From Escherichia coli (lineage in GTDB: Bacteria; Pseudomonadota; Gammaproteobacteria; Enterobacterales; Enterobacteriaceae): a stretch of DNA of 64,000 nt. The stretch lies in NCBI RefSeq assembly GCF_003334765.1, contig NZ_QOWT01000001.1, one strand, 5' to 3'. Positions 1 to 49,766 of the stretch are shown in pieces; positions within the stretch are counted from its first letter, which is position 1, and every line of letters begins with the position of its first letter. The position numbers and the translations under genes were made by a program. The notes under the pieces were generated by a model, which saw only the letters and a program-made list of their open reading frames with translations, did not search any database and was not told the DNA's origin.

Positions 1-1267
1 TGGTCAGTTTTTTCAGTGTGGCGTTAATACTGTCCTGTGCGCTATCAATAATGCCATCATCGGCAAGGTAACCTTTTACCTCGGTGGTAATTTTGGTGGT
101 AATTCCTGTTTCTTTACCATCGCCTACCAGCAATTCACGTACGGATGCTGTATTTTCATTCAGGACTTTTTTGAGTTTATCATCATCAATTTTCAGCTTA
201 CCCGTCGTGCCGTCCTGCTTAATCCCGATCTCGTTTAATGTTTTGAAGGCACCGTCGCTGGCACCGTTTGCAAATTGTGCGCGGATGCCGCTTTGAATTG
301 TACGTACAACGCTGTCTCCGAGAAGTGCACCATTATTTTTATCTTGTGCTTCAGCACCTGGGTCTACTTCTTTATATTTTGTCAGGGTGTTAAAGGTGTC
401 AATGAGGGAGTTATATGAATCCACCCAGCCTTTAATTGCTTCGGTTGCTTTATCGTTGCTTTTTGTCACCGTGACCCGGACGTCAGTGACTTTTTTGGTC
501 AAATCGAGAGTCACTCCCTGAGGAGCATCGGTAATTTTGTTACTTGAACGTTCAATATCGATACCGTTAACGTTTAGCTGTGCATTTTGCGCGTTAACCA
601 GTTCCTTCATATTCCCGGTGTTGGTCTTGCTGTCATAAGCCAGCAGATCATTTAATTTACTGTCACCCTCAACAGATATGGTCATTTTATTGGCCAGACC
701 TTCACTGGCGGTCAATACCAATTGATAGTCACCATCTTTGACTTTAACGATACTAGCGGAAATTCCACTATCGGCATCGTTAATGGCTTTGCTGATCTCA
801 CCCAATGACGTCTGATCTTTATTGAGCTTGATTTCCAGCGGCTCTTTACGGCCGTCTTGGGTAATTTTTATTGTGCGTGTATCTGATGACTCATCACCCA
901 GTGCATCTTTTGTTGATGCAATGATTGTCGGGGAATCAGTTCGTAAAGATTGCGCCTGCGCCAGTTGGGTTACGCTGATGGTATAGATACCGGGGGCAGC
1001 ACCTGCTTCGGTGGAAACTTTAAGGTCTTCATTGCTACTGGTAACGGTAGTGCTTTTGAACAGATCGGCTTTATTTAACGCAGTATTTGCAGTCTGGAAT
1101 TTTTCTAATGCACTTTTTAATGTGCCATAGGCTGTCAGACGTGCGGTATTGTCACTCTGTTGCTGAGTAATTGGGTTTAAGCGTTTTTTTTCAGCGATGG
1201 TCAGGTTGTTTAGCAATGTATCCAGCGGCAGATTCGAACCAACGCCAAGAGATGTAAATGAAGCCAT
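1..1267 (-). CDS. fliD: Flagellar filament capping protein FliD (HAP2), N-terminal ~420 codons; 3' end lies beyond window start
   Basis: Minus-strand reading frame from ATG at ~1265-1267 translates MASFTSLGVGSNLPLD...TAYGTLKSALEKFQTANTALNKADLF, FliD-like; divergent from fliC as in E. coli. Confidence 0.85.
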   Translation of the reverse strand, partial: MASFTSLGVGSNLPLDTLLNNLTIAEKKRLNPITQQQSDNTARLTAYGTLKSALEKFQTANTALNKADLFKSTTVTSSNEDLKVSTEAGAAPGIYTISVTQLAQAQSLRTDSPTIIASTKDALGDESSDTRTIKITQDGRKEPLEIKLNKDQTSLGEISKAINDADSGISASIVKVKDGDYQLVLTASEGLANKMTISVEGDSKLNDLLAYDSKTNTGNMKELVNAQNAQLNVNGIDIERSSNKITDAPQGVTLDLTKKVTDVRVTVTKSNDKATEAIKGWVDSYNSLIDTFNTLTKYKEVDPGAEAQDKNNGALLGDSVVRTIQSGIRAQFANGASDGAFKTLNEIGIKQDGTTGKLKIDDDKLKKVLNENTASVRELLVGDGKETGITTKITTEVKGYLADDGIIDSAQDSINATLKKLT

Positions 1268-1305
1268 ACCTAATTCCTTTTGATTGCAAACAGTAGATAA
1301 GCGGG

Positions 1306-1332
1306 TTATCGGCAATTTGTGCGCAAAGTTTA
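1306..1332 (-). promoter_or_regulatory. sigma-28 (FliA) class 3 promoter for fliD
   Basis: Minus strand reads TAAACTTT-N11-GCCGATAA, the sigma-28 consensus. Confidence 0.6.
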
Positions 1333-1425
1333 ATAGTTGATTCACGAAGATGATGCGCAGAGTAGAGTTGTATATTACGGATATTTCAGCCGTTAAGAAA
1401 AAACAGGAGAGAAACTAAAATTTTC

Positions 1426-1452
1426 TAAAGTTCGAAATTCAGGTGCCGATAC
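1426..1452 (+). promoter_or_regulatory. sigma-28 (FliA) class 3 promoter for fliC
   Basis: TAAAGTTC-N11-GCCGATAC about 70 nt upstream of fliC ATG. Confidence 0.65.
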
Positions 1453-1521
1453 AAGGGGTACGGTGAGAAACCGTGGGCAACAGCCCAATAACATCAAGTT
1501 GTAATTGATAAGGAAAAGATC

Positions 1522-3015
1522 ATGGCACAAGTCATTAATACAAACAGCCTGTCGCTGTTGACCCAGAATAACCTGAATAAATCTCAGTCTTCTCTGAGCT
1601 CCGCCATTGAACGTCTCTCTTCTAGCCTGCGTATTAACAGTGCTAAAGATGACGCAGCAGGTCAGGCGATTGCTAACCGTTTTACGGCAAATATTAAAGG
1701 TCTGACTCAGGCTTCCCGTAACGCGAATGATGGTATTTCTGTTGCGCAGACCACTGAAGGTGCGCTGAATGAAATTAACAACAACCTGCAGCGTATTCGT
1801 GAACTTTCTGTTCAGGCAACTAACGGTACTAACTCTGACAGTGACCTGACCTCCATCCAGTCCGAAATCCAGCAACGTCTGAGTGAAATTGACCGTGTTT
1901 CTGGTCAGACTCAGTTTAACGGCGTTAAAGTGCTGGCTTCTGATCAGGATATGACTATTCAGGTTGGTGCAAACGACGGCGAAACAATTACTATTAAACT
2001 GCAGGAAATTAATTCCGACACACTGGGATTATCTGGTTTTGGTATTAAAGATCCTACTAAATTAAAAGCCGCAACAGCTGAAACAACCTATTTTGGATCG
2101 ACAGTTAAGCTTGCTGACGCTAATACACTTGATGCAGATATTACAGCTACAGTTAAAGGCACTACGACTCCGGGCAAACGTGACGGTAATATTATGTCTG
2201 ATGCTAACGGTAAGTTGTACGTTAAAGTTGCCGGTTCAGATAAATCCCCTGAAAATGGTTATTATGAAGTTACTGTGGAGGATGATCCGACATCTCCTGA
2301 TGCAGGTAAGCTGAAGCTGGGGGCTCTAGCGGGTACCCAGCCTCAAGCAGGTAATTTAAAGGAAGTCACAACGGTGAAAGGGAAGGGGGCTATTGATGTT
2401 CAGTTGGGTACTGATACCGCAACCGCTTCTATCACAGGTGCAAAACTCTTTAAGTTAGAAGACGCTAATGGCAAAGATACTGGTTCATTTGCGTTGATTG
2501 GTGATGACGGTAAACAGTATGCAGCGAATGTTGATCAGAAAACAGGTGCAGTTTCCGTTAAAACAATGTCTTACACTGATGCTGACGGTGTCAAACACGA
2601 CAATGTTAAAGTTGAACTGGGTGGAAGCGATGGCAAAACCGAAGTTGTAACTGCAACCGATGGCAAAACTTACAGTGTTAGTGATTTACAAGGTAAGAGC
2701 CTGAAAACTGATTCTATTGCAGCAATTTCTACGCAGAAAACAGAAGATCCTTTGGCTGCTATCGATAAAGCACTGTCTCAGGTTGACTCGTTGCGTTCTA
2801 ACCTAGGTGCAATTCAAAACCGTTTCGACTCTGCCATCACCAACCTTGGCAACACCGTAAACAACCTGTCTTCTGCCCGTAGCCGTATCGAAGATGCTGA
2901 CTACGCGACCGAAGTGTCTAACATGTCTCGTGCGCAGATCCTGCAACAAGCAGGTACTTCTGTTCTGGCACAGGCTAACCAGACCACGCAGAACGTACTG
3001 TCTCTGCTGCGTTAA
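1522..3015 (+). CDS. fliC: Flagellin (H antigen); conserved N/C termini with a central region unlike K-12 H48
   Basis: 497 aa ORF; N-term MAQVINTNSLSLLTQNNLNK... and C-term ...SRIEDADYATEVSNMSRAQILQQAGTSVLAQANQ are flagellin D0/D1; RBS AGGAAAAGA upstream. Confidence 0.95.
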   Translation: MAQVINTNSLSLLTQNNLNKSQSSLSSAIERLSSSLRINSAKDDAAGQAIANRFTANIKGLTQASRNANDGISVAQTTEGALNEINNNLQRIRELSVQATNGTNSDSDLTSIQSEIQQRLSEIDRVSGQTQFNGVKVLASDQDMTIQVGANDGETITIKLQEINSDTLGLSGFGIKDPTKLKAATAETTYFGSTVKLADANTLDADITATVKGTTTPGKRDGNIMSDANGKLYVKVAGSDKSPENGYYEVTVEDDPTSPDAGKLKLGALAGTQPQAGNLKEVTTVKGKGAIDVQLGTDTATASITGAKLFKLEDANGKDTGSFALIGDDGKQYAANVDQKTGAVSVKTMSYTDADGVKHDNVKVELGGSDGKTEVVTATDGKTYSVSDLQGKSLKTDSIAAISTQKTEDPLAAIDKALSQVDSLRSNLGAIQNRFDSAITNLGNTVNNLSSARSRIEDADYATEVSNMSRAQILQQAGTSVLAQANQTTQNVLSLLR

Positions 3016-3059
3016 TCGCCGCTATATTCTGCCAAACCCCGCTCCGGCGGGGTTTTTTC
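2860..3059 (+). ncRNA. fliX: Possible FliX-type 3'UTR-derived sRNA from the fliC mRNA end (approximate bounds)
   Basis: Established knowledge that a sigma-28-dependent sRNA derives from the fliC 3' end; here only the terminator is visible in sequence. Confidence 0.25.
3035..3059 (+). terminator. Rho-independent terminator of fliC
   Basis: GC hairpin CCCCGCTCCGGCGGGG followed by T-run. Confidence 0.75.
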
Positions 3060-3119
3060 TACCCGGCAAATAGCCGTAACCCCCAAATAACCCCTCATTT
3101 CACCCACTAATCGTCCGAT

Positions 3120-3160
3120 TAAAAACCCTGCAGAAACGGATAATCATGCCGATAACTCAT
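3120..3160 (+). promoter_or_regulatory. fliA promoter region with GCCGATAA -10-like element
   Basis: GCCGATAA at ~3148-3155 just upstream of fliA GTG; the -35 is poor, so the exact promoter is uncertain. Confidence 0.3.
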
Positions 3161-3180
3161 ATAACGCAGGGCTGTTTATC

Positions 3181-3900
3181 GTGAATTCACTCTATACCGC
3201 TGAAGGTGTAATGGATAAACACTCGCTGTGGCAGCGTTATGTCCCGCTGGTGCGTCACGAAGCATTGCGCCTGCAGGTTCGACTGCCCGCGAGCGTGGAA
3301 CTTGACGATCTGCTACAGGCGGGCGGCATTGGGTTACTTAATGCCGTCGAACGCTATGACGCTCTACAAGGAACGGCATTTACAACTTACGCAGTGCAGC
3401 GTATTCGTGGCGCTATGCTGGATGAACTTCGCAGCCGTGACTGGGTGCCGCGCAGCGTGCGTCGCAACGCGCGTGAAGTGGCACAGGCAATAGGGCAACT
3501 GGAGCAGGAACTTGGCCGCAACGCCACGGAAACTGAGGTTGCGGAACGTTTAGGGATCGATATTGCCGATTATCGCCAAATGTTGCTCGACACCAATAAC
3601 AGCCAGCTCTTCTCCTACGATGAGTGGCGCGAAGAGCACGGCGATAGCATCGAACTGGTTACTGATGATCATCAGCGAGAAAACCCGCTACAACAACTGC
3701 TGGACAGTAATCTGCGCCAGCGGGTGATGGAAGCCATCGAAACGTTGCCGGAGCGCGAAAAACTGGTATTAACCCTCTATTATCAGGAAGAGCTGAATCT
3801 CAAAGAGATTGGTGCGGTGCTGGAGGTCGGGGAATCGCGGGTCAGTCAGTTACACAGCCAGGCTATTAAACGGTTACGCACTAAACTGGGTAAGTTATAA
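3181..3900 (+). CDS. fliA: RNA polymerase sigma-28 factor FliA
   Basis: 239 aa, GTG start; MNSLYTAEGVMDKHSLWQRYVPLVRHEALRL... sigma-70 family regions 2-4. Confidence 0.95.
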   Translation: MNSLYTAEGVMDKHSLWQRYVPLVRHEALRLQVRLPASVELDDLLQAGGIGLLNAVERYDALQGTAFTTYAVQRIRGAMLDELRSRDWVPRSVRRNAREVAQAIGQLEQELGRNATETEVAERLGIDIADYRQMLLDTNNSQLFSYDEWREEHGDSIELVTDDHQRENPLQQLLDSNLRQRVMEAIETLPEREKLVLTLYYQEELNLKEIGAVLEVGESRVSQLHSQAIKRLRTKLGKL

Positions 3901-3945
3901 CGTCAGTAAATGCCGCACTTTAATTTTGACTACCAGGAGTTCTTA

Positions 3946-4497
3946 ATGATGGTGCAGCACCTGAAAAGACGGCCATTAAGCCGCTATCTTAAAGACTTTA
4001 AACACAGCCAGACCCATTGCGCGCATTGCCGTAAATTACTCGATCGCATTACCTTAGTTCGCGACGGCAAAATAGTGAATAAAATCGAGATTTCCCGCCT
4101 GGACACGCTGCTTGATGAAAATGGCTGGCAAGTGGAACAACAATCATGGGCGGCATTGTGCCGATTTTGCGGTGATTTACATTGCAAAACGCAGAGTAAT
4201 TTTTTCGATATTATCGGCTTTAAGCAATTTCTTTTTGAGCAAACTGAAATGAGCCCTGGTACGGTGCGTGAATATGTCGTTCGTCTGCGCCGTTTGGGGA
4301 ATCATCTACACGAGCAAAATATTTCCCTCGCTCAGCTGCAGGACGGTTTCCTTGATGAAATCCTCGCCCCGTGGCTGCCCACCACCAGCACCAACAATTA
4401 CCGCATCGCGTTACGGAAGTATCAACACTATCAGCGTCAAACGTGTACCGGACTTGTGCAGAAATCCTCCAGCCAACCTGCTTCTGATATATATTAA
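3946..4497 (+). CDS. fliZ: Flagellar regulator FliZ
   Basis: 183 aa from MMVQHLKRRPLSRYLKDF...; the ORF-track frame extends 12 codons upstream, internal start chosen by homology. Confidence 0.9.
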   Translation: MMVQHLKRRPLSRYLKDFKHSQTHCAHCRKLLDRITLVRDGKIVNKIEISRLDTLLDENGWQVEQQSWAALCRFCGDLHCKTQSNFFDIIGFKQFLFEQTEMSPGTVREYVVRLRRLGNHLHEQNISLAQLQDGFLDEILAPWLPTTSTNNYRIALRKYQHYQRQTCTGLVQKSSSQPASDIY

Positions 4498-4584
4498 ATA
4501 AGAATAAGATGTAGCGGAGTTGTTTTTGTGTTTACAAACAATGGCTCTACACTGCAAACAGACATAACAACATTCGGGGTAAAT

Positions 4585-6476
<1,892 letters not shown>

Positions 6477-6490
6477 CTCCGGGAACGCTC

Positions 6491-7159
6491 ATGCAAGAAA
6501 GTATACAACTGGTTATTGATTCCTTGCCGTTCCTGTTGAAAGGGGCTGGGTATACTCTGCAACTCAGTATCGGCGGCATGTTTTTTGGCTTACTACTCGG
6601 ATTTATTCTCGCGCTGATGCGCCTGTCGCCAATCTGGCCCGTGCGCTGGCTGGCGCGTTTTTATATCTCTATTTTTCGTGGTACGCCGCTCATCGCACAA
6701 CTGTTTATGATCTATTACGGCCTGCCGCAGTTTGGTATCGAATTAGATCCCATTCCGTCAGCAATGATTGGTCTGTCGCTGAACACTGCCGCCTATGCCG
6801 CCGAAACGCTGCGCGCCGCCATTTCTTCTATTGATAAAGGTCAGTGGGAAGCCGCTGCCAGTATTGGTATGACGCCGTGGCAGACCATGCGTCGCGCGAT
6901 TTTGCCACAGGCGGCGCGGGTGGCGTTGCCGCCGCTGTCGAACAGCTTTATCAGTCTGGTAAAAGATACGTCGCTGGCCGCGACAATCCAGGTGCCGGAG
7001 CTGTTCCGTCAGGCGCAGTTGATTACCTCGCGCACGCTGGAGGTGTTCACCATGTACCTGGCGGCTTCGCTCATCTACTGGATCATGGCGACTGTGTTAT
7101 CGACGTTGCAGAACCATTTTGAGAATCAACTTAATCGCCAGGAGAGAGAACCAAAATGA
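6491..7159 (+). CDS. tcyL: Cystine ABC transporter permease
   Basis: 222 aa polar amino-acid ABC permease; stop overlaps tcyN start. Confidence 0.92.
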   Translation: MQESIQLVIDSLPFLLKGAGYTLQLSIGGMFFGLLLGFILALMRLSPIWPVRWLARFYISIFRGTPLIAQLFMIYYGLPQFGIELDPIPSAMIGLSLNTAAYAAETLRAAISSIDKGQWEAAASIGMTPWQTMRRAILPQAARVALPPLSNSFISLVKDTSLAATIQVPELFRQAQLITSRTLEVFTMYLAASLIYWIMATVLSTLQNHFENQLNRQEREPK

Positions 7160-7908
7160 GTGCCATTGAAGTTAAGAACCTGGTGAAAAAATTTCACGGT
7201 CAGACGGTGCTGCACGGTATCGACCTCGAGGTAAAGCCTGGCGAAGTGGTGGCAATTATCGGTCCGAGTGGTTCCGGCAAAACCACGTTGCTACGCAGCA
7301 TAAATCTGCTGGAACAACCGGAAGCGGGAACGATCACCGTTGGCGATATCACTATTGATACTGCACGTTCATTAAGTCAGCAAAAATCGCTGATTCGCCA
7401 GTTGCGTCAGCACGTCGGGTTTGTCTTCCAGAACTTTAATTTGTTTCCGCATCGTACGGTGCTGGAAAACATTATTGAAGGGCCGGTGATCGTCAAAGGC
7501 GAACCGAAAGAAGAGGCCACGGCGCGCGCTCGCGAGCTGCTGGCGAAAGTTGGGCTGGCCGGTAAAGAAACCAGCTATCCACGTCGTTTGTCTGGCGGTC
7601 AACAGCAGCGTGTAGCGATTGCGCGTGCGCTGGCAATGCGTCCTGAGGTGATTTTGTTTGACGAGCCAACGTCAGCGCTGGATCCAGAGCTGGTGGGCGA
7701 AGTCCTGAACACAATCCGCCAGCTGGCGCAGGAAAAGCGCACGATGGTGATTGTGACGCACGAAATGAGCTTTGCCCGGGATGTTGCGGACCGGGCGATT
7801 TTTATGGACCAGGGGCGGATAGTCGAGCAGGGGGCAGCAAAAGCGTTATTTGCTGATCCCCAGCAGCCTCGCACCCGCCAGTTCCTCGAGAAGTTTCTGC
7901 TGCAATAA
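7156..7908 (+). CDS. tcyN: Cystine ABC transporter ATP-binding protein
   Basis: 250 aa; Walker A GPSGSGKTT, ABC signature LSGGQQQR. Confidence 0.93.
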   Translation: MSAIEVKNLVKKFHGQTVLHGIDLEVKPGEVVAIIGPSGSGKTTLLRSINLLEQPEAGTITVGDITIDTARSLSQQKSLIRQLRQHVGFVFQNFNLFPHRTVLENIIEGPVIVKGEPKEEATARARELLAKVGLAGKETSYPRRLSGGQQQRVAIARALAMRPEVILFDEPTSALDPELVGEVLNTIRQLAQEKRTMVIVTHEMSFARDVADRAIFMDQGRIVEQGAAKALFADPQQPRTRQFLEKFLLQ

Positions 7909-8137
7909 TAAGAAAAAATCAGCCCCGACGATTCACCTGTCGGGGCGGGACGCCATTTCAAGCCTGATAAAACTGCTTAACAAATCAGCATAACTCATTA
8001 ATAACATAAGAGAATGCTATGGCTTGCAAAAGTAATTCATTGCCTGAATAATATAAATTATATATAAATCTTATTTATGTGATAGTTTGAATTATCATTA
8101 TAAATGATACTCACTCTCAGGGGCGTTGCGGTTTACT

Positions 8138-8860
8138 ATGCAGGATACGGATTTTTTCAGCTGGCGTCGCACGATGCTGTTGCGTTTTCAGAGGATGGAG
8201 ACCGCAGAAGAGGTCTACCATGAAATTGAGCTTCAGGCTCAGCAGCTGGAGTACGATTACTATTCGTTATGTGTCCGCCACCCGGTACCATTCACTCGAC
8301 CTAAAGTGGCTTTCTACACCAATTACCCTGAGGCGTGGGTTAGTTATTATCAGGCAAAAAACTTTCTCGCAATTGATCCGGTGCTGAACCCTGAAAACTT
8401 TAGTCAGGGCCATCTAATGTGGAATGATGACTTATTCAACGAAGCACAGCCGTTATGGGAAGCCGCGCGCGCACATGGTTTACGCCGCGGTGTCACTCAG
8501 TATTTAATGCTGCCAAACCGGGCGCTGGGCTTTTTGTCCTTTTCCCGTTGCAGCGCGCGCGAAATACCCATTCTTAGTGATGAACTGCAATTAAAAATGC
8601 AGTTACTGGTGCGCGAAAGTCTGATGGCTCTGATGCGTTTAAATGATGAAATAGTGATGACGCCAGAGATGAATTTCAGCAAGCGCGAAAAAGAAATTTT
8701 GAAATGGACGGCGGAAGGGAAGACATCAGCAGAGATAGCGATGATTTTGTCAATCTCTGAGAATACGGTCAATTTCCATCAGAAAAACATGCAGAAAAAA
8801 ATCAATGCACCAAATAAGACCCAGGTGGCCTGTTACGCGGCCGCTACTGGCTTAATTTGA
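8138..8860 (+). CDS. sdiA: LuxR-family quorum-sensing regulator SdiA
   Basis: 240 aa MQDTDFFSWRRTMLLRFQRMETAEEVYHEI...; C-terminal LuxR HTH. Confidence 0.93.
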   Translation: MQDTDFFSWRRTMLLRFQRMETAEEVYHEIELQAQQLEYDYYSLCVRHPVPFTRPKVAFYTNYPEAWVSYYQAKNFLAIDPVLNPENFSQGHLMWNDDLFNEAQPLWEAARAHGLRRGVTQYLMLPNRALGFLSFSRCSAREIPILSDELQLKMQLLVRESLMALMRLNDEIVMTPEMNFSKREKEILKWTAEGKTSAEIAMILSISENTVNFHQKNMQKKINAPNKTQVACYAAATGLI

Positions 8861-8888
8861 TCTCTTTTCTGTTCTGCGTGCCAGATGC

Positions 8889-8923
8889 AAAAACCGGCTG
8901 AAAGGCACGCTCTCAGCCGGTTT
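8889..8923. terminator. Bidirectional hairpin terminator between convergent sdiA and yecF
   Basis: AAAACCGGCTGA...TCAGCCGGTTTT inverted repeat with flanking A/T runs. Confidence 0.6.
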
Positions 8924-8927
8924 TATA

Positions 8928-9152
8928 TTACTGACGGTAGGCTTGTTTAATTTGCTTAACCGTTTTGGAAAATACTGCAGCCTGGGTTTCGTCTTCGATC
9001 AGCGCAAGCTGTTTTTCCATCTTTAACATCACGCGGCCCGCGTCAGCTTGTCCCATCGCCTGCAGCATCAGCGTCAGCATCGCTTTCAGGCAGGAGACTT
9101 CATTTGCCAGTTCTTGATTATTCTCGGCAGTAGAAAAATCAGGCGTACTCAT
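8928..9152 (-). CDS. yecF: Uncharacterized protein YecF (DUF2594)
   Basis: 74 aa [55 protein letters not shown]... Confidence 0.85.
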
Positions 9153-9610
9153 TTATTTTCCTCGTCATGTTGCAATGAAAATTTGCGGTGAAAAATGTTA
9201 AGGCGGCGGAGTATACCATAAGCTTTGCTAAAAATAGCAGTGGTTGTTTTTTGAGCGTGATATCGGCAGTGCTATAAAATACGTTAATATAATGACCAAT
9301 AAATATTTTTATCATGAATGTTTTTTGCCCGTATTGTTCGGGTTAATTAATGTTACATATTCAGCGGGCTGATTTTCATTTTTGCTGAATAAAGGTAATT
9401 TTTGTCACATTTCGTCGCAGGGCTTACTGTGAAACGATCCGGTAAGCCGTTGGTGACGGGCGTGACCATAACTGTGGACAATCGAATTGACAAAAACGAG
9501 AGAAAAATCGAATACCCACCATTTTTAACGTTTCAAAGTTGCAATAAAAACCGCTAATATACGAATGACTAACTATCAGTAGCGTTATCCCTATTTCTGG
9601 AGATATTCCT

Positions 9611-10267
9611 TTGATCAACGTTCTACTTGTTGATGACCACGAACTGGTGCGCGCAGGGATACGACGCATTCTGGAAGATATAAAGGGTATTAAAGTCGTC
9701 GGTGAGGCATCGTGCGGTGAAGACGCCGTTAAGTGGTGCCGGACAAATGCCGTTGACGTGGTGCTAATGGACATGAGTATGCCGGGCATTGGCGGTCTTG
9801 AGGCGACGCGTAAAATCGCGCGTTCCACAGCTGATGTCAAAATCATCATGCTTACCGTCCATACAGAAAACCCTTTACCAGCTAAAGTCATGCAGGCCGG
9901 TGCTGCGGGCTACCTCAGCAAAGGCGCGGCTCCGCAGGAAGTCGTGAGTGCGATTCGTTCTGTCTATTCAGGGCAGCGTTACATTGCTTCTGACATCGCT
10001 CAACAAATGGCGTTAAGCCAGATCGAACCAGAAAAAACAGAAAGCCCATTTGCCAGTTTGTCTGAACGTGAATTGCAGATTATGCTGATGATCACCAAGG
10101 GCCAGAAGGTCAATGAGATCTCAGAACAGCTCAATCTCAGTCCGAAAACGGTGAACAGCTACCGCTATCGTATGTTCAGTAAACTAAACATTCATGGCGA
10201 TGTTGAGCTGACTCACCTGGCAATTCGCCATGGTCTGTGTAATGCGGAGACATTATCAAGTCAGTGA
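9611..10267 (+). CDS. uvrY: Two-component response regulator UvrY (BarA partner)
   Basis: 218 aa, TTG start; [30 protein letters not shown]...; receiver plus LuxR HTH. Confidence 0.93.
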
Positions 10268-12096
10268 GTGATCAGTTTGACGCAAAAGCGTTTTTAAAAA
10301 CCGTAACCAGCCAGCCAGGCGTTTATCGCATGTACGATGCTGGTGGTACGGTTATCTATGTCGGCAAAGCGAAAGACCTGAAAAAACGGCTTTCCAGCTA
10401 TTTCCGTAGCAACCTCGCTTCGCGCAAAACCGAAGCGCTGGTCGCCCAGATTCAGCAAATTGATGTAACGGTTACTCATACAGAAACCGAAGCGCTGTTG
10501 CTGGAACACAACTACATCAAACTCTATCAGCCGCGTTACAACGTTTTGCTACGCGATGATAAATCTTATCCTTTTATCTTCCTGAGTGGCGATACCCACC
10601 CGCGTCTGGCGATGCATCGTGGTGCGAAGCATGCCAAAGGTGAATATTTCGGCCCGTTCCCGAATGGCTATGCCGTACGTGAAACTCTGGCGCTACTGCA
10701 AAAGATTTTCCCCATTCGCCAGTGCGAAAATAGTGTTTATCGCAATCGCTCGCGTCCGTGTCTGCAATATCAGATAGGGCGCTGTCTGGGACCGTGCGTT
10801 GAAGGACTGGTGAGTGAAGAAGAATACGCTCAGCAGGTCGAGTATGTGCGCCTGTTTTTGTCTGGCAAAGATGATCAGGTGCTTACGCAACTCATTAGCC
10901 GTATGGAAACTGCCAGTCAGAATCTGGAGTTTGAAGAAGCGGCACGTATTCGCGACCAAATTCAGGCGGTGCGACGCGTCACCGAAAAACAATTCGTTTC
11001 CAATACCGGCGACGACCTTGACGTTATTGGTGTGGCGTTCGATGCGGGCATGGCTTGTGTCCACGTATTGTTCATTCGTCAGGGCAAAGTGCTCGGCAGC
11101 CGCAGCTATTTCCCGAAAGTGCCTGGCGGTACGGAACTGAGCGAGGTGGTAGAAACCTTCGTAGGTCAGTTCTATTTACAAGGCAGCCAGATGCGCACCT
11201 TACCGGGTGAGATCCTGCTCGATTTTAATCTTAGCGATAAAACGCTGCTCGCCGATTCCCTTTCAGAACTGGCGGGACGCAAGATTAATGTTCAAACCAA
11301 ACCTCGCGGCGATAGGGCGCGTTATCTGAAACTCGCGCGCACCAATGCGGCGACGGCCTTAACCAGCAAACTTTCGCAGCAATCTACCGTTCACCAGCGG
11401 CTGACCGCGCTTGCCAGCGTGTTGAAATTGCCGGAAGTGAAGCGGATGGAGTGCTTTGACATCAGCCATACCATGGGCGAACAAACCGTCGCTTCCTGTG
11501 TGGTGTTTGATGCTAACGGCCCGCTGCGTGCGGAGTATCGGCGCTATAACATTACAGGCATCACGCCGGGCGATGATTATGCGGCGATGAATCAGGTGCT
11601 GCGTCGGCGTTATGGTAAAGCCATTGACGACAGTAAGATCCCGGATGTGATCCTTATCGACGGCGGCAAAGGCCAGCTTGCGCAGGCGAAAAATGTCTTC
11701 GCCGAACTGGATGTCTCATGGGATAAAAATCATCCGCTGCTACTTGGCGTTGCCAAAGGTGCAGATCGTAAGGCTGGACTGGAAACGCTGTTCTTTGAGC
11801 CGGAAGGTGAGGGATTTAGTTTGCCGCCAGATTCACCCGCGCTGCATGTTATCCAGCATATTCGCGATGAATCACATGATCACGCGATTGGCGGGCACCG
11901 TAAAAAACGGGCGAAAGTCAAAAATACCAGTTCCCTGGAAACCATTGAAGGCGTCGGGCCAAAACGTCGGCAAATGTTGTTGAAATATATGGGCGGTTTG
12001 CAAGGTTTACGTAACGCCAGCGTCGAGGAAATTGCAAAAGTGCCGGGTATTTCGCAAGGTCTGGCAGAAAAGATCTTCTGGTCGTTGAAACATTGA
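10264..12096 (+). CDS. uvrC: Excinuclease ABC subunit C
   Basis: 610 aa, GTG start overlapping uvrY stop; GIY-YIG N-terminus ([23 protein letters not shown]). Confidence 0.95.
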
Positions 12097-31502: not shown

Positions 31503-33164
31503 ATGATTAACCGTATCCGCGTAGTCACGCTGTTGGTAATGGTGCTGGGGGTATTCGCACTGTTACAGCTTATTTCCGGCAGTCTGTTTTTTTCTTCCCT
31601 TCACCATAGCCAGAAGAGCTTTGTGGTTTCCAATCAATTACGGGAACAGCAGGGCGAGCTGACGTCAACCTGGGATTTAATGCTGCAAACGCGCATTAAC
31701 CTGAGTCGTTCAGCGGTACGGATGATGATGGATTCCTCCAATCAACAAAGTAACGCCAAAGTTGAATTGCTCGATAGCGCCAGGAAAACATTGGCGCAGG
31801 CAGCGACGCATTATAAAAAATTCAAAAGCATGGCACCGTTACCTGAAATGGTCGCTACCAGTCGTAATATTGATGAAAAATATAAAAACTATTACACAGC
31901 GTTAACTGAACTGATTGATTATCTAGATTATGGCAATACTGGAGCTTATTTCGCTCAGCCAACCCAGGGAATGCAAAATGCAATGGGCGAAGCGTTTGCT
32001 CAGTACGCCCTCAGCAGTGAAAAACTGTATCGCGATATCGTCACTGACAACGCAGATGATTACCGATTTGCCCAGTGGCAACTGGCGGTTATCGCGCTGG
32101 TGGTGGTATTGATTCTGCTGGTGGCGTGGTACGGCATTCGCCGTATGTTGCTTACTCCGCTGGCAAAAATTATTGCTCACATTCGCGAAATCGCCGGTGG
32201 TAACCTGGCGAATACCCTGACCATTGACGGGCGCAGTGAAATGGGCGACCTGGCGCAGAGCGTTTCACATATGCAACGCTCTTTGACTGACACCGTCACT
32301 CATGTCCGCGAAGGTTCAGATGCCATCTATGCCGGTACCCGTGAAATTGCGGCGGGCAACACCGATCTTTCCTCCCGTACTGAACAGCAGGCATCCGCGC
32401 TGGAAGAAACTGCCGCCAGCATGGAGCAGCTCACCGCGACAGTGAAGCAAAACGCCGATAACGCCCGCCAGGCCTCGCAACTGGCGCAAAGTGCCTCCGA
32501 CACCGCCCAGCACGGCGGCAAAGTGGTGGATGGCGTAGTGAAAACGATGCATGAGATCGCCGATAGTTCGAAGAAAATTGCCGACATTATCAGCGTTATC
32601 GACGGTATTGCCTTCCAGACTAATATCCTCGCGCTGAATGCCGCGGTTGAAGCCGCGCGTGCGGGTGAACAGGGCCGTGGTTTTGCCGTGGTGGCGGGTG
32701 AAGTGCGTAATCTTGCCAGTCGCAGCGCCCAGGCGGCAAAAGAGATCAAAGCCCTCATTGAAGACTCCGTCTCACGCGTTGATACCGGTTCGGTGCTGGT
32801 CGAAAGCGCCGGGGAAACAATGAACAATATCGTCAATGCTGTCACTCGCGTGACTGACATTATGGGCGAGATTGCATCGGCATCGGATGAACAGAGCCGT
32901 GGCATCGATCAAGTCGCATTGGCGGTTTCGGAAATGGATCGCGTCACGCAACAGAACGCATCGCTGGTGCAGGAATCAGCTGCCGCCGCCGCTGCGCTGG
33001 AAGAACAGGCGAGTCGTTTAACGCAAGCGGTTTCCGCGTTCCGTCTGGCAGCCAGCCCACTCACCAATAAACCGCAAACACCATCCCGTCCTGCCAGTGA
33101 GCAACCACCGGCACAGCCACGACTGCGAATTGCTGAACAAGATCCAAACTGGGAAACATTTTGA
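31503..33164 (+). CDS. tar: Methyl-accepting chemotaxis protein II (aspartate/maltose receptor)
   Basis: 553 aa from [17 protein letters not shown]; HAMP and MCP signalling domain; C-terminal NWETF pentapeptide. Confidence 0.95.
32310..33000 (+). repeat. Tandem paralog repeat, copy 1 (tar signalling domain); copy 2 at ~34011-34701 in tap
   Basis: Long near-identical stretches between tar and tap (e.g. ATTATCAGCGTTATCGACGG, GCAAAAGAGATCAAAG); antisense ORFs 32327-32905 and 34241-34561 share the same peptide run. Confidence 0.7.
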
Positions 33165-33209: not shown

Positions 33210-34811
33210 ATGTTTAATCGTATTCGAATTTCGACCACGCTGTTTTTAATTTTGATTCTCTGCGGGATCTTGCAGATTGGCAGTAACGGCATGTCTTTTT
33301 GGGCATTTCGCGACGATTTGCAACGACTGAATCAGGTCGAGCAGAGCAATCAGCAACGTGCGGCATTAGCGCAAACTCGGGCGGTAATGTTACAGGCCAG
33401 TACCGCGCTGAACAAAGCGGGCACTCTGACGGCACTTAGCTATCCGGCGGATGACATTAAAACGTTGATGACGACGGCGCGCGCCAGTCTGACGCAATCC
33501 ACCACGCTGTTTAAAAGTTTTATGGCGATGACTGCGGGCAACGAGCACGTCAGGGGATTGCAAAAAGAGACGGAGAAAAGTTTTGCCCGCTGGCACAACG
33601 ATCTCGAACATCAGGCGACCTGGCTTGAAAGTAATCAACTTTCGGATTTCCTCACTGCGCCGGTGCAGGGATCACAGAATGCGTTTGACGTTAACTTTGA
33701 GGCCTGGCAGCTGGAGATCAACCATGTGCTGGAAGCCGCCAGTGCGCAAAGCCAGCGTAACTATCAGATTTCGGCACTGGTGTTTATCAGCATGATTATT
33801 GTTGCGGCGATCTACATCAGCAGTGCGCTGTGGTGGACGCGCAAGATGATTGTTCAACCACTGGCCATTATCGGTAGCCATTTTGACAGCATTGCTGCGG
33901 GTAATCTGGCGCGTCCGATTGCGGTATATGGTCGTAATGAGATCACCGCCATTTTTGCCAGTCTGAAGACCATGCAGCAGGCTTTGCGTGGGACGGTAAG
34001 TGATGTGCGTAAGGGAAGCCAGGAGATGCACATTGGTATCGCGGAGATTGTCGCAGGCAATAACGATCTCTCAAGTCGTACCGAACAGCAGGCGGCATCG
34101 CTGGCACAAACGGCCGCCAGTATGGAGCAATTAACCGCCACGGTAGGGCAAAACGCCGATAACGCACGACAGGCGTCGGAACTGGCAAAAAATGCCGCGA
34201 CAACGGCGCAGGCGGGCGGTGTTCAGGTCAGTACCATGACTCACACCATGCAGGAGATCGCCACCAGCTCGCAAAAAATTGGCGACATTATCAGCGTTAT
34301 CGACGGAATTGCTTTCCAGACCAATATTCTGGCCCTGAATGCGGCAGTGGAAGCGGCTCGCGCCGGAGAGCAGGGGCGTGGTTTTGCGGTAGTGGCAGGT
34401 GAAGTGCGCAATCTTGCCAGCCGTAGCGCGCAGGCAGCAAAAGAGATCAAAGGGCTGATCGAAGAGTCAGTCAATCGTGTCCAGCAGGGTTCGAAACTGG
34501 TGAATAACGCCGCCGCGACCATGATCGATATTGTCAGTTCGGTGACCCGCGTGAACGACATTATGGGAGAAATTGCCTCTGCGTCGGAAGAACAACAGCG
34601 GGGGATTGAGCAGGTTGCACAGGCTGTCAGCCAGATGGATCAGGTGACTCAGCAGAACGCCTCGCTGGTAGAAGAAGCGGCGGTGGCAACGGAACAACTG
34701 GCGAATCAGGCCGACCATCTTTCGTCGCGTGTGGCGGTATTTACCCTTGAAGAACATGAAGTAGCACGACATGAGTCGGTGCAGTTACAAATTGCGCCAG
34801 TGGTATCCTGA
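33210..34811 (+). CDS. tap: Methyl-accepting chemotaxis protein IV (dipeptide/pyrimidine receptor)
   Basis: 533 aa from MFNRIRISTTLFLILILCG; MCP signalling domain; lacks NWETF. Confidence 0.93.
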   Translation: MFNRIRISTTLFLILILCGILQIGSNGMSFWAFRDDLQRLNQVEQSNQQRAALAQTRAVMLQASTALNKAGTLTALSYPADDIKTLMTTARASLTQSTTLFKSFMAMTAGNEHVRGLQKETEKSFARWHNDLEHQATWLESNQLSDFLTAPVQGSQNAFDVNFEAWQLEINHVLEAASAQSQRNYQISALVFISMIIVAAIYISSALWWTRKMIVQPLAIIGSHFDSIAAGNLARPIAVYGRNEITAIFASLKTMQQALRGTVSDVRKGSQEMHIGIAEIVAGNNDLSSRTEQQAASLAQTAASMEQLTATVGQNADNARQASELAKNAATTAQAGGVQVSTMTHTMQEIATSSQKIGDIISVIDGIAFQTNILALNAAVEAARAGEQGRGFAVVAGEVRNLASRSAQAAKEIKGLIEESVNRVQQGSKLVNNAAATMIDIVSSVTRVNDIMGEIASASEEQQRGIEQVAQAVSQMDQVTQQNASLVEEAAVATEQLANQADHLSSRVAVFTLEEHEVARHESVQLQIAPVVS

Positions 34812-49616: not shown

Positions 49617-49667
49617 GACGTGAATAGCGCCCGGAAACGGGCGCTGAGGTTATGCAAACGTAAAGCT

Positions 49668-49766
49668 GCCTGATGCGCTATGCTTATCAGGCCTACATAG
49701 TCCCTGCAATATATTGAATTAGCAAGGTTTTGTAGGCCGGATAAGGCGTTCACGCCGCATCCGGCA
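49668..49766. repeat. BIME/RIP-type element: two REP palindromes flanking an AT-rich core
   Basis: GCCTGATGCGCTATGCTTATCAGGCCTAC ... GTAGGCCGGATAAGGCGTTCACGCCGCATCCGGCA. Confidence 0.6.

Follow-up and report, generated by a model that had tools for sequence, protein, structure and literature searches.

Positions 1–3036 of the 64,000-nucleotide stretch of Escherichia coli DNA analysed here (contig NZ_QOWT01000001.1; hereafter the window) very probably correspond to the H2 form of the E. coli fliD-fliC antigen cassette, a 3.2-kb haplotype spread by homologous recombination and belonging to a class, termed class B, for which we infer an origin by import. The cassette is a deeply diverged haplotype relative to that of K-12 (H48), embedded in otherwise K-12-like DNA. 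Exchange of the H2 cassette is known biology, an ordinary swap of a surface antigen.

The window encodes an H2 flagellin

The fliC gene (1522–3015, plus strand) is an open reading frame of 497 amino acids plus stop, free of internal stops, whose product carries the N- and C-terminal helical domains of the FliC/FljB family, scoring 530.7 bits against NCBIfam model NF005294 (cut-off 387) and, as a borderline pass, 619.1 bits against NF005953 (cut-off 619). It aligns end to end with solved Salmonella and E. coli flagellins. A first-pass annotation, made from the letters of the window, had called the termini canonical flagellin, yet they are strongly diverged: the first 175 residues are only 80% identical to K-12 H48 FliC and the last 95 only 68%, nucleotide identity being 76% for the N-terminal end and 73% for the C-terminal one. 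The middle of the protein drops to 39% amino acid identity, giving 59.9% overall, clearly below the level of more than 98% identity to K-12 fliC that would have contradicted the annotation, and positions 2053 to 2790 give no blastn nucleotide alignment with K-12 MG1655 (NC_000913), in agreement with the annotation's claim that the central region departs from H48. The C-terminus, read in that annotation as LSLLR instead of LSLLQG, is indeed ...QNVLSLLR here and ...QQVLSLLQG in MG1655.

The variable region (2040–2760, plus strand), which corresponds to the surface domains D2/D3 and hence the H antigen, was compared by blastn with 5426 complete E. coli genomes, H types being read from serotype-labelled genomes. 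It is matched in 113 of them, all at 95% identity or above. By its sequence, the fliC allele is H2, because this region is 99.0% identical to named H2-typed genomes (O103:H2 str. 12009, other O103:H2 strains and O45:H2 FWSEC0003) and matches no other H type. The gene shares its locus and length class with the alleles of str. 12009 and FWSEC0003, representing a sub-allele that departs by ~1% from the form seen in STEC O103/O45; its exact sequence (100%) recurs in ~97 complete E. coli genomes, many of them non-STEC. In flagellins, the filament core is built from the conserved D0/D1 ends, whereas the central D2/D3 domains are the exposed antigen; FliC-H2 would be expected to build the flagellar filament, with its central 230–240 residues (D2/D3) displayed as the H2 antigen. 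As originally proposed, fliC is the sole serotype-informative locus in the window, which corresponds to K-12 1,940,194-2,003,9xx and stops short of the O-antigen cluster.

The divergence extends through the cap gene into fliS

The filament cap gene, fliD (1–1267, minus strand; annotated as fliD in identical genomes), is present as codons 1–422 of 470 of a class B allele, with its start codon at 1265–1267, and is cut by the left edge of the window. The first-pass annotation had reported a variant FliD N-terminus; the N-terminus does differ from K-12, but so does the rest of the gene, the whole protein sharing 51% amino acid identity with K-12 FliD and blastn returning only three short fragments at 72–86%. 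Amino acid identity to Citrobacter and Salmonella FliD is 77–86%, and fliD is 99.6% identical to that of an O103:H2 strain. Full-length FliD, taken from a genome (L002) that shares 99.97% DNA identity with positions 1–12000 of the window, scores 660.1 bits against the NCBIfam equivalog model NF005955 (cut-off 387). The best PDB matches of FliC and FliD are solved Salmonella enterica structures of FliC/FljB and FliD, respectively (6JY0, 1UCU, 9GNZ), and for each protein the solved homologues span its full length. FliD is the distal filament cap that inserts flagellin, and the FliD of the cassette would probably form such a cap.

The left junction and left flank, on the fliS side, were read from the genomes L002 and L046, both identical to the window in the parts that were compared. 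There, FliS differs from K-12 only within its first eight residues (MYTASGSKAY versus MYAAKGTQAY), its N-terminus matching the MYTASG(T/I)KAY of Citrobacter and Salmonella, while FliT, like FliA on the other side, is 100% identical to K-12. The divergent block amounts to 3.2 kb at no more than 76% nucleotide identity to K-12, containing the first eight fliS codons (outside the window), fliD, the promoter region, fliC and ~21 nt of 3′UTR. As judged from these alignments, the replacement covers the whole of fliD, both predicted sigma-28 promoters and the conserved fliC ends, together with those fliS codons.

Abrupt junctions within a wider diverged tract

Both junctions of the cassette are abrupt: divergence drops from ~25% or unalignable to 1–2% within a few tens of bases, and identity beyond is 98–99%. 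In the right-hand junction zone (3016–3083), delimited by pairwise and multiple alignments, K-12 has ~174 extra nt with REP elements; the sequence past ~3084 is essentially identical to K-12, and the blastn block begins at 3037. From there to 64000, the window and K-12 are colinear, with 98–100% identity (98.95% over 3037–25699 and 99.87% over 25692–64000), bearing out the view that the flanking genes are K-12-like, and the sole structural difference is an IS1H missing here.

That the differences in fliC and fliD arose in place by rapid diversifying selection, without recombination, is very improbable: immune and phage selection is known to act on the surface domains of flagellin, and a weak alignment of the variable region with H48 and Salmonella FljB persists, as such a history would allow, but the steep fall in divergence at both ends argues against it, as do the replacement of the non-coding spacer and 5′UTR, which match other genera almost exactly, and the occurrence of the same fliC allele, with identity of 99% or more, across unrelated E. 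coli backgrounds (STEC O103:H2/O45:H2 and K-12-like strains). The junctions, the divergent block and the shared allele fit instead the H-antigen allelic replacement by recombination at fliDC that had been suggested at first pass. Crossovers would have lain in the conserved flanks of the cassette.

An identity profile per kb further revealed a flanking tract from fliA to about cheW/cheA (3037–31000) that is 0.5–2.3% diverged from K-12, beyond which (~31 kb) the window is ~100% K-12-like. In strain H3, identical to the window wherever compared, the wider tract (1–3% diverged) reaches more than 40 kb leftwards, its left end lying beyond asnT. The DNA exchanged relative to K-12 is more than the cassette, including this wider tract, and in the window strain the cassette very probably arrived with, or lies inside, a much longer recombinant tract.

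Promoter region and fliC 3′ end

The divergent intergenic region between fliD and fliC (1268–1521; 254 nt) is Citrobacter/Salmonella-like and not K-12-like, with 84–87% nucleotide identity to those genera, whereas the K-12 spacer gives no blastn match to the Citrobacter and Salmonella loci. Immediately upstream of the fliC ATG, ~62 nt are shared without change by the window, S. enterica diarizonae and two Citrobacter species. The sigma-28 (FliA) class-3 consensus is TAAAGTTT-N11-GCCGATAA, and sequence matches predict a sigma-28-type promoter for fliD at 1306–1332 (minus strand; TAAACTTT-N11-GCCGATAA) and a class 3 promoter of this type for fliC at 1426–1452 (plus strand; TAAAGTTC-N11-GCCGATAC). 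Both are conserved across genera in the alignment, the two elements of the fliD promoter lying in columns invariant across the window, K-12, Citrobacter and Salmonella. From the known consensus, we infer that these sites act as promoters, from which fliD and fliC would be transcribed divergently within the spacer. A sigma-70 promoter scan yielded fewer matches than shuffled sequences and was set aside.

A terminator scan predicted an intrinsic fliC terminator at 3037–3058 (plus strand; CCCCGC-TCCG-GCGGGG followed by T6), with a fold energy of −18.2 kcal/mol and the same architecture in Citrobacter, Atlantibacter and Buttiauxella. Transcription of fliC would stop at this short terminator; the fliC 3′UTR here is only ~45 nt, and the hairpin is the sole part in common with K-12. 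Alignment indicates that a short fliC 3′UTR is the common state in Enterobacteriaceae, and the fliC-fliA spacer (165 nt here) is 162–164 nt in other genera, with the same architecture. The K-12 fliC-H48/fliD locus has the same position and gene order and is alike in its sigma-28 promoter logic and in the general folds of flagellin and cap, differing in its spacer and in the extra REP-bearing fliC 3′UTR.

In K-12, this REP-bearing 3′UTR is the source of the sRNA FliX (PMC10578931). The K-12 FliX region is absent from the window: fliC has no ~200-nt 3′UTR with REP sequence, and REP-type Rfam matches, present in K-12, are not found in the window. The only two Rfam matches within positions 1–3400, istR and RsmY, were sub-threshold and terminator-like, and were taken as chance.

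Discrete fliD-fliC classes in E. coli

Across the 5426 complete genomes, fliD falls into three discrete classes, and no intermediates between them were seen. The K-12 type is the majority (3189 genomes, 59%), a third type at ~73% nucleotide identity to K-12 accounts for ~1320, and class B, the type of the window, is found at 95% nucleotide identity or more in 862–863. Little variation exists within class B fliD: 839 of its 863 genomes reach 99% identity or above. For the K-12 type, divergence between phylogroups A and B2 is in step with the core genome, fliD of CFT073 (phylogroup B2) being 97.9% identical to that of K-12 at the nucleotide level. The fliD class is inherited together with the fliC-end class (863 and ~849 genomes, respectively), and an evenly spaced sample of the ranking held no fliD-only or fliC-only matches. 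The ~863 genomes with class-B fliD and fliC ends span other H types besides H2, such as H8 and H21, so that class B carries several antigens. Homologous recombination has very probably transferred it from lineage to lineage.

The resemblance of the termini (LSLLR) to Salmonella, and of FliD to Salmonella and Citrobacter, could also arise from an assembly chimera, from Citrobacter or Salmonella contamination, or from a second flagellin locus of the flk/fll/flm type. The probability of any of these appears close to negligible, as the same fliS-to-fliA arrangement is seen in 113 complete genomes for H2 and ~863 for the class, and no Citrobacter or Salmonella sampled comes closer than 71–90% in nucleotide identity.

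Previous work has shown that Salmonella fliB, fliC and fliD trees agree with one another and not with the core genome, which fliA and fliS do follow (PMC5744181). In that co-evolving block (Liu et al.), as here, flagellin and cap genes are inherited together, against the core genome. Literature alongside the Salmonella work describes E. coli flagellins as falling into discrete groups; in the literature searched, we found no statement linking three fliD classes to fliC end classes.

Origin of class B

Class B most likely entered E. coli from a Citrobacter/Salmonella-like relative; this import would have replaced an Escherichia-type fliD-fliC while leaving Escherichia-type fliS and fliT in place. 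Import is supported because class-B FliD is nested among Citrobacter and Salmonella FliD (77–86% amino acid identity), because the fliC 5′UTR is near-identical to theirs and the fliC-fliA spacer has the architecture of other genera, and because class B fliD is uniform while K-12-type fliD tracks core divergence; the Salmonella fliB-fliC-fliD block offers a parallel. K-12 FliD shows 49–55% amino acid identity to every genus tested. No Escherichia species representative carried class-B FliD peptides in a scan of exact peptide patterns with one genome per species, which counts as weak evidence for import, and the E. albertii H-antigen paper gave no information on the class carried by other Escherichia species.

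The window resembles Salmonella and Citrobacter in the LSLLR C-terminus, the almost identical fliC 5′UTR and the short fliC 3′UTR; unlike them, it has an H2-specific variable region, no fliB between fliC and fliA, and Escherichia-type fliT and fliS past codon 8. At 71–90% nucleotide identity, a recent transfer from any Citrobacter or Salmonella sampled was rejected. None of the sampled genera is a recent donor, because class-B identity to them (80–90% for the fliC ends and spacer) is near the 84–86% of the vertically inherited fliA, and reaches only 71–79% in fliD.

A less probable alternative, with which these comparisons are compatible, is vertical retention of an old class-B allele. In its full form, which we consider unlikely, class B would be the ancestral Escherichia version, and the K-12-type cassette with the unusual fliS and fliT a later-spread import. 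The fliA-like nucleotide identity of the fliC ends and spacer and the common Enterobacteriaceae state of the 3′UTR would suit such ancestry, as would the outlier status of the K-12-type proteins against every genus tested (FliD ~50%, FliS 60–67% and FliT 31–40% amino acid identity). However, the atypical fliS and fliT are shared by all E. coli examined, class-B strains included, so that, were class B ancestral, fliST by itself must have swept through a second time, the crossover falling at fliS codon 8–9. It is also at odds with the majority share and core-like divergence of K-12-type fliD, with the near uniformity of class-B fliD, and with FliD identities to the C. freundii complex that do not follow the species tree (83–86% for class B, against 77–78% for Salmonella).

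Returning to import, a broader proposal is that E. coli keeps three discrete, non-recombining fliD-fliC classes, that a Citrobacter/Salmonella-like relative supplied the class of the window through a crossover at fliS codon 8–9, that co-adaptation links cap and flagellin ends, and that post-transcriptional feedback on flagellar synthesis differs by H-type class through absence of the FliX 3′UTR. We put this forward tentatively, as a possibility about which we are on balance doubtful.

Implications

The H2 cassette leaves current understanding unchanged. Its locus gives the H type (H2) of the source strain and is useful for serotyping; the H2 allele is common to important STEC serotypes (O103:H2, O45:H2), and is also found in many commensal-like strains. 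It offers a clean textbook example of antigen-cassette exchange in which the unit is cap, flagellin and promoters, beyond the flagellin variable region, and K-12 findings on the fliC 3′UTR sRNA FliX may not transfer to class-B strains.

Flagellin and cap genes of the window differ from those of K-12

The left end of the window carries the first 422 codons of fliD on the minus strand (1–1267, start codon at 1265–1267, running off the window), a divergent fliD-fliC spacer (1268–1521) and an intact fliC of 497 codons on the plus strand (1522–3015), followed by fliA (3181–3900), fliZ, tcyJ and dcyD. FliC scores above the cut-offs of the NCBIfam FliC/FljB models, and full-length FliD above that of the FliD equivalog model. 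Each aligns over its whole length with solved structures, FliC with flagellins and FliD with caps, the best matches being Salmonella FljB/FliC and Salmonella FliD. Putative sigma-28-type promoters precede fliC (1426–1452, TAAAGTTC-N11-GCCGATAC) and fliD (1332–1306, TAAACTTT-N11-GCCGATAA), and both are conserved in all genera aligned; the fliC terminator has a fold energy of −18.2 kcal/mol. We infer the roles of promoters, terminator and cassette from sequence together with established knowledge of the flagellar regulon, and the cassette should be functional because its proteins are intact and widely conserved.

FliC is 59.9% identical to its counterpart in K-12 MG1655 at the amino-acid level. 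As the first-pass annotation had recognised, the central region is unlike K-12 H48 (39% identity) and the protein ends in LSLLR, where K-12 has LSLLQG. The termini, described there as canonical, are indeed those of a flagellin, but they too lie far from K-12 (80% over the first 175 residues and 68% over the last 95; 76% and 73% in nucleotides). Likewise, the variation reported for the FliD N-terminus extends over the whole of fliD (51% amino-acid identity), and the intergenic region, which had not been included, is similarly distant. Within the cassette, DNA alignment to K-12 was limited to the fliC ends and three short fliD fragments. FliS is 95.6% identical to K-12, and FliT and FliA are 100% identical. 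The claim of K-12-like flanks held, since window 3037–64000 is colinear with K-12, at 98.95% identity up to 25699 and 99.87% thereafter. The sole structural difference over this range is the K-12 IS1H upstream of flhDC, missing at 25692–25699, which leaves the flhDC regulatory region uninterrupted; the surrounding kilobase has the lowest K-12 identity of the flank, 97.7%.

The divergent block lies in a longer tract

Sequence to the left of the window was read from strain 2013C-4991, which is 99.97% identical to window 1–12000, and from strain H3, an exact match over the parts compared. In 2013C-4991, K-12-like sequence (98.8%) extends no further than the ninth fliS codon. Starting with the eight fliS codons before that point, the block of ~3.2 kb continues through the fliD-fliS spacer, the whole of fliD, the intergenic region and fliC, and ends 21 nt past the fliC stop codon. 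Its right junction falls between 3016 and ~3084, where K-12 and the window have only the terminator hairpin (3037–3058) in common; from ~3084 the sequence is essentially that of K-12.

Between 3 and 31 kb, per-kilobase identity to K-12 is 97.7–99.6%, apart from a single kilobase (15–16 kb) at 100%; between 31 and 64 kb it is about 100%, with 0–2 differences per kilobase. Leftward in strain H3, identity is mostly 96.3–99.6% where aligned, over a stretch of more than 40 kb that reaches asnT, including one kilobase at 100%, two local dips to 77–89% and one unaligned stretch. The profiles on the two sides show that the K-12-like clonal frame starts only near cheW/cheA, where the identity step near 31 kb marks one end of a long recombinant tract that surrounds fliDC. 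With flanking divergence of 1–3% on both sides, the difference in H type from K-12 belongs to one long exchange, or several, between lineages of E. coli, and not to a tidy 3-kb replacement in the strain's recent history. The first-pass observation is confirmed, and its interpretation as H-antigen replacement by recombination is supported.

An H2 allele with one of three fliD classes

About 97 complete genomes of E. coli carry the whole fliC at 100% identity. In a sensitive blastn search, its variable region (2040–2760) was found in just 113 of 5426 genomes, all matches being at least 95% identical. This region is 99.0% identical to that of O103:H2 str. 12009, several more O103:H2 strains and O45:H2 FWSEC0003, a match that assigns the allele, on sequence, to H2, as a sub-allele ~1% off the STEC form. 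The H2 flagellin allele described here, together with the cap gene linked to it, is an ordinary feature that was already known. In one strain sharing this H2 fliC, a plasmid, pBS74R-D_5 (NZ_CP063337.1, 25471–27188), carries a gene for a 366-residue flagellin next to an fljA-like gene labelled 'phase 1 flagellin transcriptional repressor'. IS elements flank the pair, which has the look of a mobile second-flagellin/repressor module.

Among the 5426 E. coli genomes, fliD falls into three discrete classes, and no intermediates were seen. The K-12 type, class A, occurs in 3189 genomes at 95–100% identity to K-12 (97.9% nucleotide identity in CFT073, phylogroup B2, H1); the window type, class B, in 862–863, 839 of them at least 99% identical to the window (O111:H8, O103:H2 and O91:H21 among them); and a third type, class C, in about 1320, with ~73% nucleotide identity to K-12 over the whole gene (for example, ST131 strain JJ1887). 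Window-type fliC ends (at least 90%) occur in about 849 genomes, nearly the count for window-type fliD, and among genomes sampled at even intervals along the ranking, none had this fliD without matching fliC ends, or the reverse; the cap gene therefore moves in step with the flagellin ends. A 3.5-kb contig assigned to 'Collinsella sp.' (JAIJJM010000335.1), with a class-B E. coli fliD (99% amino-acid identity) beside a fliC of different H type, almost certainly comes from E. coli and was mis-binned.

No paper stating this three-class structure was found in the literature covered, which did not include the key 2003 paper; phenomena of this kind are known. Recombination whose ends lie in conserved regions has been described as a route of serotype switching (PMC7018530), and in Salmonella the fliB, fliC and fliD trees are mutually concordant and discordant with the core genome, which fliA and fliS follow (Liu et al. 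2017, PMC5744181).

The fliC 3′UTR and FliX

FliX is a ~200-nt sRNA from the K-12 fliC 3′UTR, with a ~100-nt form that includes a REP sequence (Melamed et al. 2023, PMC10578931). The window 3′UTR is about 45 nt long and has only the terminator in common with K-12, which has about 174 further nucleotides with two REP sequences (K-12 2,001,912–2,002,106 region), matching the REP-derived Rfam families naRNA4 and ES036. In alignment to K-12, this FliX-yielding sequence is absent from window 3016–3083, and FliX is probably not produced by strains that belong to the window's fliC class. Between fliC and fliA lie 165 nt in the window and 162–164 nt in other genera, but 320 nt in K-12 and ~319 nt in CFT073.

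Elsewhere, window 49667–49766 (~100 nt; K-12 ~1,954,500, cmoB-torZ spacer) matches REP-containing sequence of the K-12 fliC 3′UTR at 86% identity and is an ordinary REP/BIME repeat. Matches of 74% between 32343–32968 and 34044–34669 and each other's K-12 counterparts trivially reflect the paralogous tar/tap chemoreceptor genes.

Origin of the window-type haplotype

Window-type FliD is 86% identical to that of Citrobacter portucalensis, 83–84% to other C. freundii-complex species, 81% to C. amalonaticus and 77% to C. sedlakii and Salmonella enterica diarizonae, whereas K-12 FliD reaches only 49–55% against these, Buttiauxella, Franconibacter and others. Identities to other genera are distributed similarly for the ends of FliC (N end 85–91%, C end 82–94%, compared with 80–85% and 67–74% for K-12), and over the 62 nt upstream of the fliC start codon the window, two species of Citrobacter and Salmonella share one sequence, from which K-12 differs throughout. 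In class-B strains, FliS residues 1–8 (MYTASGSK) match Citrobacter/Salmonella MYTASGT/IK, unlike K-12 MYAAKGTQ; the remaining FliS and the entire FliT are Escherichia-type. These Escherichia-type proteins are themselves outliers among Enterobacteriaceae, at 60–67% (FliS) and 31–40% (FliT) identity to Citrobacter, Salmonella, Buttiauxella and other genera (L001, a K-12 comparison locus, and L002, from 2013C-4991, against L006–L041), among which FliS is 70–99% and FliT 53–100% identical. FliA, ~94% identical to Citrobacter and Salmonella, follows the species tree.

Nucleotide identity of class B to any sampled genus (71–79% for fliD, 80–90% for fliC ends and spacer) is no higher than that of vertically inherited fliA (84–86%), which argues against a recent or identifiable donor. 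For the same reason we retain, as an unlikely alternative, that class B is an old allele of Escherichia and that it was the K-12 type that was imported. Import of class B is favoured because its fliD diversity is low, K-12-type fliD divergence between phylogroups A and B2 is core-like, class-B FliD is nested within Citrobacter, and other Escherichia species are missing from its matches in the genome collection, which was scanned by exact peptide patterns with one genome per species. The most economical reading is in two steps: Escherichia would carry an atypical fliC-fliD-fliS-fliT block, into which a Citrobacter/Salmonella-like fliD-fliC would later have recombined through crossovers at the conserved beginning of fliS and at the terminator of fliC.
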